The position numbers are program-made. A stretch of 64,000 nucleotides of DNA from Minisyncoccia bacterium (GTDB taxonomy: Bacteria > Patescibacteriota > Minisyncoccia > Phycocordibacterales > UBA6065): NCBI GenBank assembly GCA_044233485.1, contig JBIIJY010000003.1, positions 32,481 to 96,480 of the forward strand, written 5' to 3'. Shown here piece after piece: positions 55,901-58,900 of the stretch (positions are counted from its first letter, which is position 1; every line of letters begins with the position of its first letter).

Positions 55901-58900
55901 GTCACTCTTGAACCGCTCGCGACTGCGACGCGTGTACCAGGTAGAGACATCATCAACAAGCGTTGTCAGTTCTCGAACACCAACATCAAGAGTATACGAC
56001 TCAAGAGCATGTGTGATAGCTGCATGCGCTCCGCGAAGGCGTTCAATCATCCAGCGGTCGAGAATATGTGTTGTGTGAGCCTGTGCACTGATAGTCTCAT
56101 CAGCATAGAGCTTATAGAGAGTTAAGACATTTTCCAGACGATTTAAAACTTTGTTCTGGACTTCGGCTACTGATTTTTCAGAGAAATGTAGATCTTCCGC
56201 TGAAACAACCGGTGAACCAAGGAGGACAAGTCGCAGAGCGTCCATACTGTATGCTCGAATGACCTCGAGCGGGTCTGGATAGTTTTTGAGACTCTTGGAC
56301 ATTTTCTTACCATCTTCTGCCAACACAAGACCGTTCACAATCACGTTCTTAAATGGACTTCGTCCAAAGAGTGCTGTACCGAGCACAAGCAGAGCATAGA
56401 ACCAACCACGAGTCTGATCGAGTCCTTCAGCAATAAAGTCCGCCGGAAATCCCTTTCCTTGAGCTGGATCAAAAGCCATCGTCGGTGTTCCAGTAAAACA
56501 AGCCTCGCCGTACGGCATTGAACCAGATTCAAACCAACAATCAAAGACATCTGGCACTCGAGTCATCAACTTTCCTTTTGAATCAAGTATTTCAAGACCA
56601 TCGATATACGGTCGGTGAAAATCGATTTCGTATGAGGGGTTACGCGGAAGTTTTACACTGAGCACTTCTCGAACTTCAGCGTTACCAAATGGCGCAACGA
56701 GCTCATCAGTAACATGTCCGAGAAAATGACTTTGCAATACTCGTAGAGGTGTACCATGAGCAATAATCAAAACATTTTTGCCAAAAAACTTTTCTGAAAT
56801 ATCTTCTACAGCTGCAACCATACGAGCGCGCACTGCAGTCAGATTTTCCATATCAGGAAGCGTGTAGGTAAAGGCTTGCTTACGATGTGGAAACTGTGCG
56901 TGGAATTCTTCCCAGTTTTTCCCATGAAGGGCGCGAGCACCGAGTTCACCAAGTCGTGGATCAACAACGATATGTGCATCAGAAAGCCCGAGGACATCTT
57001 GCACCTCTTTAAATGTCTCCTGTGTGCGCACGAATGGAGACACCGCCACCACATCTATATGTTTACCTTTGAGTTTTTGAGCACTCAAGCGCACCTGGGC
57101 TACCCCTTCAGGAGTGAGGTGATCTGGCGCATTTGGATCAGTACTGACTTTATTCTGAAGATTACTTTCGGCTTGCCCGTGACGCATCAGATACAGCGTG
57201 TTGCGGACTTTTGAATGTGCCACAATATCTTCAACTGTACTGAGAACTTTTACTTCAGTACCATCTTCACTTTTCCATACCGGTAGTGGCGCCCCCCAGT
57301 ATCGAGTACGTGAGATTGCCCAATCGCGAGCACCCTGGAGCCACTTTCCAAAACGCCCTTCCCCCACATGAGAAGGCACCCAGCGTACATCTTTATTAGC
57401 AGCTACGAGCTCGTCTTTGAAAGATGTTACTTTCACAAACCAACTTGAGGCAGCGTAGTTTAGAAGCGGAGTCTCACAGCGCCAACAATGCGGATATGAG
57501 TGAACGAGTTTTTCCTTTGCGAAAAGCGCACCGTGCATATGAAGCCACTTGATGACTTCTACGTCTGTTTTCTGATGAGGATCCTTTTCCCCTGCATCAC
57601 CCTTCGGCTTTACATACAACCCGACGAAATCACGAACCTCGGGCTTGAAACGCCCGTCGACGCCGACATGCTGAATAAATGGCAGAGAGTGTTTTACACC
57701 GAGCTGATAGTCGTCTTCGCCATACCCAGGAGCGATGTGAACTACCCCGGTACCATCGTCAGTTGTAACGAAGTCTGCGGCATAGATTTTCCAGCCATTC
57801 TCGCGATTCTTGAGATTAGAATCCTGGGCGTAGTAATCGAAAACCGGCGCATATTTCTTACCAGTAAGAGCTAAACCCTTATACGTCTTTAGAATTTTGA
57901 AATCTTTCTTAAATAGCGTCTCGACGCGAGCTTGAGCAACAATATACTTTTCAGAACTACCAACTAACTCAACCTCTGCATAATCTATTTCAGAATTGAC
58001 CGCAAGAGCGACGTTACCAGGAAGTGTCCAAGGTGTGGTCGTCCAAGCAATGATAAAAGTCTGTGGTTCGTCGACCAGCGCAAATTTTACATACACTGAG
58101 ATATCAGTGATATCTTTGTACCCCTGATTCACCTCGAAGTTTGAAAGCGTTGTTCCACAACGTGGACACAAATGCATACTCTTGAATCCTTCATAGACTA
58201 ACCCCTTATCAAACAATGTTTTAAAGACCCACCAGACGGATTTGGTGTACTCAATGTCCATTGTCCGATAGTCATTCTCCATGTCTACAAAACGCCCAAA
58301 TCGCGGCACTTGCTCACGCCAAACTCCAGCGTATCGAAGCACTACCTCTCGAGCAGTTTCATTGAACTTCTGAATTCCAAACTGCTCAATGTCTTTTTTA
58401 CTCTTGAGTCCAAGCTCTTTCTCAACAAGGTTCTCTATCGGAAGCCCATGACAATCCCATCCCCATCGTCGAGGTACACGAAACCCACACATCGTCTTGT
58501 ACCGAGGAATGACATCTTTGATTGAGCCCGCCAAAATATGTCCATAATGAGGAGTACCTGAAGCAAAGGGTGGACCATCGAAGAAAATAAATTCTCCACG
58601 TGGAGCGTTTTTCTCCAAAGTCTTTTCGAAAATTCGATGCTGCTTCCAATGGGCGAGAGTTTTTTCTTCTCGTCGCGCCGTTTCGCTCATGTGTGGATTT
58701 GTATGTGACATAAAATAAATAAAAGAATAAGCCAGACGCGAGTGAGTCTGGCTTATCTTTTGAGGAATTAAGTCAAACTCACGAGGTACTACCCGTTACT
58801 AATTGCAATAGAAATTCGTGTACCTCGGTTTGACTTCATGTGATGTATAGTAATACGTCTCGGGTCTCTTTTCAAGCTACTTAAGTGTAGCGGTCCTACC

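Follow-up and report, generated by a model that had tools for sequence, protein, structure and literature searches.

How has a phosphatase come to lie within the catalytic domain of an aminoacyl-tRNA synthetase (aaRS), and what might it do there? This question is raised by a stretch of 64,000 nucleotides from a Minisyncoccia bacterium of the Patescibacteriota (GenBank assembly GCA_044233485.1, contig JBIIJY010000003.1, positions 32,481 to 96,480; the whole stretch is referred to here as the window), in which an open reading frame (ORF) on the minus strand encodes an isoleucyl-tRNA synthetase (IleRS) with a branch-1 histidine phosphatase domain nested inside it. It is highly probable that this architecture is genuine and that the phosphatase is an active one. 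The overall best explanation, to which a probability of about 0.4 is given, is that the phosphatase is coupled to the synthetase that carries it and would act on a ligand or by-product of the adenylation site.

The ORF encodes 1151 amino acids (aa) when counted from its first ATG, with neither an internal stop codon nor a frameshift, while public gene calls (P0001) place the start at 58690 and give a protein of 1144 aa. Pfam domains follow one another along it in the order tRNA-synt_1, His_Phos_1, tRNA-synt_1, Anticodon_1 and DUF5915. The whole ORF and its synthetase parts, including the connective peptides (CP), are located in the window as follows:

55256-58711, minus strand: whole ORF, type-2 IleRS with nested phosphatase domain (stop codon at 55256-55258)
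57224-58711, minus strand: N-terminal part of the IleRS, aa 1-496, holding the first half of the Rossmann fold, the CP core, CP1, CP2 and the start of CP3
58538-58549, minus strand: HYGH motif of the first Rossmann half, aa 55-58
58013-58042, minus strand: TTTPWTLPGN motif (aa 224-233) of the CP1 editing domain, which spans approximately aa 197-408
57275-57322, minus strand: CP2-CP3 linker WAISRTRYWG..., after which come the first strands and helix of CP3
55259-56623, minus strand: C-terminal part of the IleRS, aa 697-1151, from the remainder of CP3 onward
56600-56617, minus strand: HRPYID, in the remainder of CP3
56516-56551, minus strand: DVFDCWFESGSM, in the second Rossmann half, aa 721-732
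56291-56305, minus strand: KMSKS motif of the second Rossmann half, aa 803-807
55631-56059, minus strand: anticodon-binding domain
55298-55531, minus strand: type-2 C-terminal domain DUF5915 (43.3 bits)

The synthetase is complete in these parts. The NCBIfam model for isoleucyl-tRNA synthetase (TIGR00392, ileS) is matched with 835.4 bits against a cut-off of 621.4, and the HYGH, KMSKS and editing TTTPWTLPGN motifs are all intact. The presence of DUF5915 and the nearest structures place the protein in the type-2 (eukaryote-like) subtype: the best matches in the Protein Data Bank are the human, yeast, Candida, Priestia megaterium (IleRS2) and Thermus thermophilus enzymes (E-values of 1e-190 to 1e-209), whereas the type 1 enzyme of Staphylococcus aureus is matched more weakly (1e-97), and the full-length AlphaFold model, with a predicted local distance difference test (pLDDT) score of 90.9 and a predicted template-modelling score of 0.84, finds its best fold matches in type-2 IleRS (8c9d/8c8v) and in the yeast enzyme (8wnd). 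The ORF is a type-2 IleRS, the sole one seen within the window, and its synthetase part would be expected to charge tRNA-Ile as usual, in which case the protein would be bifunctional. The same domain order is found in the type-2, mupirocin-resistant-type enzymes of P. megaterium (IleRS2, 8c8u/8c8v), T. thermophilus (1ile) and yeast (7d5c/8wnd), which share the HYGH and KMSKS motifs, the CP1 editing domain and DUF5915 with the window protein (target-normalised Foldseek TM-scores of 0.80-0.88) but have approximately 10 residues where the latter has a phosphatase domain of approximately 200. The curated models for mupirocin-resistance IleRS fell well short (MupB 692 and MupA 645, each against a cut-off of 1900), as did that for IleRS carrying a GNAT domain (NF040702, ileS_w_GNAT, 333 bits against 1999), with no acetyltransferase Pfam match in the protein. 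The latter model constitutes a curated precedent for an IleRS with an extra enzyme domain, although the inserted chemistry differs from that of the window protein.

The position of the insert is given by alignment to the human, yeast and Candida enzymes. In human cytosolic IleRS, the counterparts of aa 13-496 and aa 697-995 are residues 14-488 and 498-805, respectively, and about 200 residues thus stand in place of about 10 in type-2 IleRS. Its borders read ...KVRN/TLYLM and ...SVK/LPRN, and the linkers on either side are short, with N504, P689 and N691 conserved and the structural model confident across them. In the CP nomenclature followed here, CP3 has been delimited to residues 473-534 in Candida IleRS and 459-526 in yeast IleRS, and the yeast CP2-CP3 linker, ARDWNVSRNRYWG, has been described as part of the pocket for tRNA A76 and reveromycin (PMC7191050, PMC7955072). 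The corresponding linker in the window protein is ARDWAISRTRYWG. Taken together, the alignment and these published boundaries place the phosphatase within CP3, about 30 residues past the CP2-CP3 linker.

The inserted DNA at 56654-57199 on the minus strand translates to TLYLMRHGQAESN...NVLIIAHGTPLRVL...VLSV, that is aa 505-686 of the ORF, and the following features are recognised in and around it:

56624-57223, minus strand: inserted segment, aa 497-696, comprising the histidine phosphatase domain and its short conserved linkers, with no counterpart in other type-2 IleRS
56702-57196, minus strand: Pfam His_Phos_1 (PF00300) from a profile search, aa 506-670
57176-57184, minus strand: RHG motif with R510, H511 (the predicted phospho-acceptor) and G512, invariant in 120/120 homologues
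57023-57040, minus strand: SPFVRT motif with the second catalytic arginine, R562, which is invariant
56945-56956, minus strand: RLGE motif with E589, the predicted general acid, which is invariant
56750-56767, minus strand: IIAHGT motif with the second catalytic histidine, H652, which is invariant
56639-56650, minus strand: linker LP(H/R)N, with N504 as the conserved linker residue at the other border

An earlier note on this DNA, made from the sequence alone, had proposed an in-frame branch-1 histidine phosphatase between two conserved IleRS blocks, and this is borne out by the profile searches. The His_Phos_1 profile is matched over positions 1-165 of 194 with an E-value of 1e-32 and 113.8 bits, against a gathering threshold of 21.7, well outside what chance would produce, so that PF00300 as well as TIGR00392 lies above its cut-off; all the catalytic residues are present, the domain borders have been mapped, and the two IleRS blocks in question are found where they were reported, WAISRTRYWGAPLPVW at aa 464-479 and DVFDCWFESGSM downstream of the insert. 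The domain core (aa ~503-686) has the alpha/beta/alpha fold of branch-1 histidine phosphatases and is of the PhoE/PspA/CobC type with a full cap subdomain. Independent folding of the insert, a further expectation of the note, is supported by an AlphaFold2 model of the domain alone with a pLDDT of 95.7 and by values of 88-97 for the insert in the confident full-length model. Across an alignment of 120 homologues, R510, H511, G512, T533, G536, S558, R562, E589, E622, R630 and H652 are invariant and N517 is kept in 119 sequences, even though mean identity to the query falls to 37% in the insert, compared with 60-73% in the synthetase core. Since the catalytic residues have remained invariant in an otherwise divergent segment, selection on catalysis is indicated, and a dead pseudo-enzyme is ruled out. 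From these residues it is predicted that the insert works as a phosphohydrolase through a phospho-His511 intermediate, in which R510, R562 and H652 would hold the phosphoryl group and E589 would serve as the acid.

Nested enzyme domains are unusual in an aaRS and the sequences are metagenomic, so an artefact or a relic was also considered: a chimera of assembly, a pseudogene with a frameshift, a mobile insert resembling an intein, or a domain that has lost its activity. Nothing was found in its favour, and it is refuted by the evidence that follows. The identical protein occurs on at least six contigs from three independent samples and assemblers (one Logan assembly and two JGI metagenomes), one of these contigs being 681 kb long, and its neighbours are the same; a 90%-identical orthologue and 118 further clusters are known besides. 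The uninterrupted frame and the invariant catalytic residues have been described above. GC content is even across the insert borders, the flanks lack inverted repeats and hold direct repeats that are short and no more than chance would give, and no Hint or intein match is found in Pfam, which also disposes of an intein or other mobile insert.

The architecture is not a one-off. A survey of orthologues, such as the earlier note had called for, found the insert in every one of the best 120 homologue clusters, each with PF00300 together with the IleRS domains (49-90% identity, 1107-1258 aa). Among GTDB species genomes, 550 relatives of the query were confirmed, the best 80 of which all span the insert and are named Taylor-, Wolfe-, Vogel-, Kaiser-, Yonath-, Nomura- and Lloydbacteria, Paceibacterota or Minisyncoccia, equivalent to the class Paceibacteria of the Patescibacteria; this and the other taxonomic statements made here follow the names of the records among the top matches. 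The architecture is an old, inherited trait under selection across the class Paceibacteria (Minisyncoccia), and it recurs in valyl-tRNA synthetase (ValRS), at several sites and in tandem copies.

This recurrence was seen when the insert alone was searched against 1.8 billion cluster representatives and domains were mapped on the best 150. In IleRS the phosphatase is found at three or more sites, among others in CP3, after the DxWFxSG motif and just ahead of the anticodon-binding domain, while ValRS uses the CP3 site and the post-WFSSG site too, and the number of domain copies ranges from one to four overall. A second copy in IleRS lies in tandem within CP3, after DxWFESG or just before the anticodon-binding domain; such two-domain proteins include P0204, P0245, P0228, P0236, P0219, P0270, P0170 and P0194, and the first of these, of 1419 aa, was found on six contigs of up to 1 Mb. 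In ValRS P0244 the domain occupies the homologous CP3 site (...WCISRQIWFGHQIPVWY / KKKPEFKIFVSRHGQ...), in P0169 it follows DTWFSSGLW, and ValRS with two, three or four copies (P0442, P0459, P0144) reach 1750 aa. Of 158 domain copies, among them those in tandem, at the other sites and in ValRS, nearly all have retained the catalytic set. The same domain family has thus been inserted repeatedly into the IleRS and ValRS of Patescibacteria. Insert-bearing ValRS are common in Falkow-, Komeili- and Peregrinibacteria, where they are interleaved among the matches with insert-free ValRS, and the named taxa hint at a division in which the host is IleRS in Paceibacteria and ValRS in ABY1-type groups (Falkow- and Komeilibacteria). 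Many domain matches that appear free-standing are fragments of fused genes on short contigs and carry the N504 and LPH linker residues too.

The nature of the hosts bears on whether phosphatase and synthetase are connected in function. All multi-domain hosts examined among the best 150 representatives are IleRS, ValRS or one sulfate adenylyltransferase, the last represented by the Paceibacteria proteins P0222 and P0283, which have an N-terminal histidine phosphatase and are without the usual C-terminal adenosine 5'-phosphosulfate (APS) kinase domain; their phosphatase domain is 41% identical to the IleRS copies and has Gln at the general-acid position. IleRS, ValRS and sulfate adenylyltransferase all form adenylates and release pyrophosphate (PPi). 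On the basis of sequence comparison and models, it is somewhat more probable that the phosphatase is functionally coupled to its synthetase than that it is not, because all hosts examined share this chemistry, because the insertions arose independently and repeatedly in the same two paralogues, and because the linkers are short, conserved and confidently modelled.

The same survey lends itself to another, possible explanation, that a housekeeping small-molecule phosphatase has lodged in an insertion-tolerant CP3 loop with no mechanistic link to aminoacylation, and has persisted because its precise excision is improbable and because an essential, constitutively expressed host gene guarantees its expression in a streamlined genome. 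The topology of CP3 varies among IleRS types and CP3 serves as a docking surface in human IARS1, as would suit a permissive loop. Unrelated enzyme domains also take up the same sites in relatives: a Ser_hydrolase (alpha/beta) domain lies at CP3 of ValRS P0430 and P0507, and in IleRS P0233 His_Phos_1 is accompanied by two more domains, a GNAT that follows the WFxSG motif and, within the editing region, an IS200-like Y1 transposase domain. The presence of several sites and tandem copies suggests dosage rather than geometry, a choice of IleRS or ValRS by lineage, as hinted at by the named taxa, would mean that the host is interchangeable, and the fold is that of a generic, PhoE-like phosphatase of broad specificity. 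This explanation is countered by the genomes of the candidate phyla radiation (CPR), which encode scant biosynthetic metabolism that would call for such a phosphatase, by the hosts examined, which are class Ia synthetases and one sulfate adenylyltransferase and not a random assortment, by the linker residues, which are conserved and modelled as rigid, and by the repeated independent insertion in two paralogous enzymes, which it leaves to be explained.

Several of these observations, and some others, weigh against the coupled reading. The variety of insertion sites and the tandem arrays argue against a precise channelling geometry, and the unrelated enzyme domains in the same loops would fit a simply permissive platform equally well. 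If each genome has a single synthetase carrying the domain, local removal of PPi or the repair of one tRNA would become implausible. The fusion to sulfate adenylyltransferase is rare, with two clusters, and its Gln replaces the predicted acid. We know of no branch-1 enzyme that is firmly established as a pyrophosphatase. Homology, moreover, names no substrate, because all curated phosphatase equivalogs score below their cut-offs.

These equivalogs were compared within the 25 best NCBIfam families shown for the window protein, and every one of them (cofactor-dependent phosphoglycerate mutase, CobC, PspA, SixA and GpmB) is far under its cut-off. Among the models of cofactor-dependent phosphoglycerate mutase (dPGM), NF038349 scores 62.6 against 225 and PRK01295 47 against 316, while TIGR01258 is not among these 25 families; the motif of dPGM is RHGxSxWN, and the RHG region of the window protein reads RHGQAESN. 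Since the dPGM models fail and the window has its own cofactor-independent phosphoglycerate mutase (iPGM), as well as an enolase, the insert is not the glycolytic mutase. CobC (TIGR03162, 59.7 against 162.9), PspA (NF045917, 41.8 against 350) and SixA (TIGR00249, 46.4 against 74.5) were rejected in the same manner. The top phosphatase-containing NCBIfam model is PRK07238 (RNase H/acid phosphatase), with 67 bits against a cut-off of 326.

What the coupled phosphatase would act on is the weakest step of the proposal. For an enzyme tied to class Ia synthetases, the substrate would be an adenylation-site ligand or by-product, and two candidates may be put forward: a small nucleotide-type phosphate, either PPi or the terminal phosphate of an adenine nucleotide, and the 2'/3'-phosphorylated A76 end of tRNA. 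That the substrate is a nucleotide-type synthetase ligand of one of these kinds is held with low confidence. The structures nearest to the domain are all small-molecule phosphatases, the protein phosphatases SixA, PGAM5 and Sts being farther, and the charge of the domain is near neutral (median isoelectric point of 6.7, net charge of about -1); the full-size capped PhoE/PspA/CobC-type fold and this charge mildly disfavour a macromolecular substrate. Within the coupled reading there is a lean towards PPi or an adenine nucleotide, because the fold is of the small-molecule type, the charge is neutral and one host is free of tRNA, yet a substrate of specifically this kind is a tentative proposal. 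No pyrophosphatase is found among the 40 window ORFs scanned, with some 20 smaller ones left out; since the window is only about 9% of the 681-kb contig, this negative says nothing about the PPi idea.

The second candidate corresponds to an explanation in its own right, named first in the earlier note, ahead of action on nucleotide by-products and a moonlighting fusion. On this view the domain heals tRNA ends: A76 of synthetase-bound tRNA would be freed of a 2'- or 3'-phosphate, of what remains when a 2',3'-cyclic phosphate is opened, or of a (pyro)phosphate added by a toxin, and could then be charged again. In E. coli, the CCA-adding enzyme possesses an HD domain that is active as a 2',3'-cyclic phosphodiesterase and as a phosphatase, and the tRNA CCA end is the target of pyrophosphorylation by toxSAS toxins. 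The insert lies about 30 residues past the linker that in yeast IleRS contributes to the A76/reveromycin pocket, its synthetase hosts bind tRNA, and a 3'-phosphorylated A76 is nucleotide-like and could suit a PhoE/CobC-type pocket, CobC itself acting on a nucleotide analogue. This role is nonetheless unlikely: the closest structures are capped small-molecule enzymes while the macromolecule-directed forms, minimal and open, are farther, the domain is not basic, and repair confined to tRNA-Ile or tRNA-Val is hard to rationalise. Furthermore, sulfate adenylyltransferase, an enzyme that does not bind tRNA, carries a close relative of the domain, and one of the insertion sites adjoins the anticodon-binding domain, far from the acceptor end.

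A broader variant extends this idea to the other inserted domains, the class Ia synthetases of Patescibacteria being regarded as platforms whose accessory hydrolases and transferases are directed to adenylate-like ligands or to the acceptor end of tRNA. The phosphatase would then clear A76 of a 2'/3'-phosphate, such as ribotoxin cleavage leaves behind, or of a (pyro)phosphate added by a toxin, as in CCA pyrophosphorylation of the toxSAS type, and the GNAT and serine-hydrolase inserts would perform related end-chemistry or detoxify inhibitors. This is improbable on present evidence but would, if true, mean that the target enzyme carries its own means of repair or immunity.

Least probable among the functional explanations is a regulatory, sensory or protective module whose binding and slow turnover of a phosphorylated metabolite or phosphoprotein could modulate IleRS, reverse an inhibitory phosphorylation of the synthetase or inactivate a phosphate-containing aaRS inhibitor. 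The fold can act on phosphoproteins, as SixA, PGAM5, Sts and the C-terminal domain of MutT1 illustrate, and HipA-type kinases target other aaRS; the C-terminal domain of MutT1 also has nucleotide activity. MccH-like phosphoramidases of Parcubacteria confer resistance to the aaRS inhibitor microcin C, and the GNAT and serine-hydrolase inserts of sister proteins may parallel the immunity chemistry of MccE and MccF. Set against this, the acid/base Glu and the cap are fully conserved, as in a normal turnover enzyme, and no kinase or inhibitor of IleRS or ValRS is known in these organisms. Judging from the chemistry of the family, N-acyl phosphoramidate diesters such as processed microcin C would be a misfit for a monoester-specific RHG pocket. 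The GNAT domain of P0233 matches Acetyltransf_1, Acetyltransf_7 and Acetyltransf_10, and RimL/MccE-type families are not among its matches.

Comparison with known systems sets the architecture apart from its parts. Free-standing phosphatases of the PhoE/PspA/CobC/GpgP type (1h2e, 4ij5, 6e4b, 6s2q, 9mmh) are 21-25% identical to the window domain, which in contrast is nested inside another enzyme. RHG phosphatases are also known as fusions, namely in MutT1 (Nudix with a SixA-like domain; 9cxx, 3fjy), Rv2228c (RNase H with a CobC-like acid phosphatase) and PFK-2/FBPase-2. In these, as here, the partner of the phosphatase belongs to the metabolism of nucleotides or nucleic acids, but the fusion is end-to-end, whereas the window phosphatase is nested in a loop of the catalytic domain of its partner and that partner is an aaRS. 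Insertions and appendages of aaRS include CP3 of type-1 IleRS, the Zn-binding CP3 of T. thermophilus, the leucine-specific domain of LeuRS and the eukaryotic WHEP, GST and UNE domains, and the CP3 of IleRS is a known variable site which the window insert shares. To our knowledge, such additions are structural, RNA-binding, editing or protein-interaction modules, with no catalytically intact phosphatase inside a catalytic domain among them. Full-text searches of the literature found no aaRS described as carrying a histidine phosphatase domain, a preprint on the CCA enzyme and a paper on CPR protein families being of no relevance, and the suggestion in the earlier note that the architecture had not been described stands in that no publication on it was found. 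While both component families are already known, their nested arrangement and its recurrence are new; such proteins are numerous in public databases, with both Pfam domains automatically assigned.

A module fixed across a class-level radiation of ultra-small bacteria, and recurring as this one does, points to strong selection linking the hydrolysis of phosphate esters to class Ia synthetases. Should the link be mechanistic, whether through clean-up of PPi or nucleotides, healing of tRNA ends or defence, it would represent a new accessory activity of the translation apparatus and show something of the way in which minimal cells keep their tRNAs charged. Should the domain be hitchhiking, it would constitute a natural insertion of one enzyme into another and mark CP3 as an engineerable insertion site.

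A practical aspect concerns annotation. Many insert-bearing IleRS and ValRS are named 'class I tRNA ligase family protein' or 'hypothetical protein' by NCBI, and insert-free relatives carry the name 'valine--tRNA ligase'; automatic naming apparently fails because of the insert. Because of such vague labels, automated metabolic reconstructions of CPR bacteria may miscount IleRS and ValRS or report a spurious 'phosphoglycerate mutase'.

The gene surroundings of the ORF include four aaRS genes within 14 kb, and the glycolytic genes mentioned above lie near the start of the window:

577-1866, minus strand: enolase
2827-4359, plus strand: iPGM
48815-50248, 51401-52783, 55256-58711 and 60573-62270, all minus strand: four aaRS genes
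54710-55246, minus strand: RecO

The four synthetases are MetRS, a class II enzyme with an HGTP anticodon domain, the IleRS and ArgRS, and genes for an AI-2E transporter and a DUF11-type protein are also interspersed among them. No tRNA genes are found within the window. Between ArgRS and IleRS lies an ORF of 547 aa (58877-60520, minus strand) that has no Pfam match and is kept at the same position on all three independent contigs with an identical IleRS. Elsewhere in the window, a protein of 1027 aa (35397-38480, minus strand) combines a beta-helix region with an LCAT-like domain (lecithin:cholesterol acyltransferase family), which is unusual for a bacterium with a small genome.

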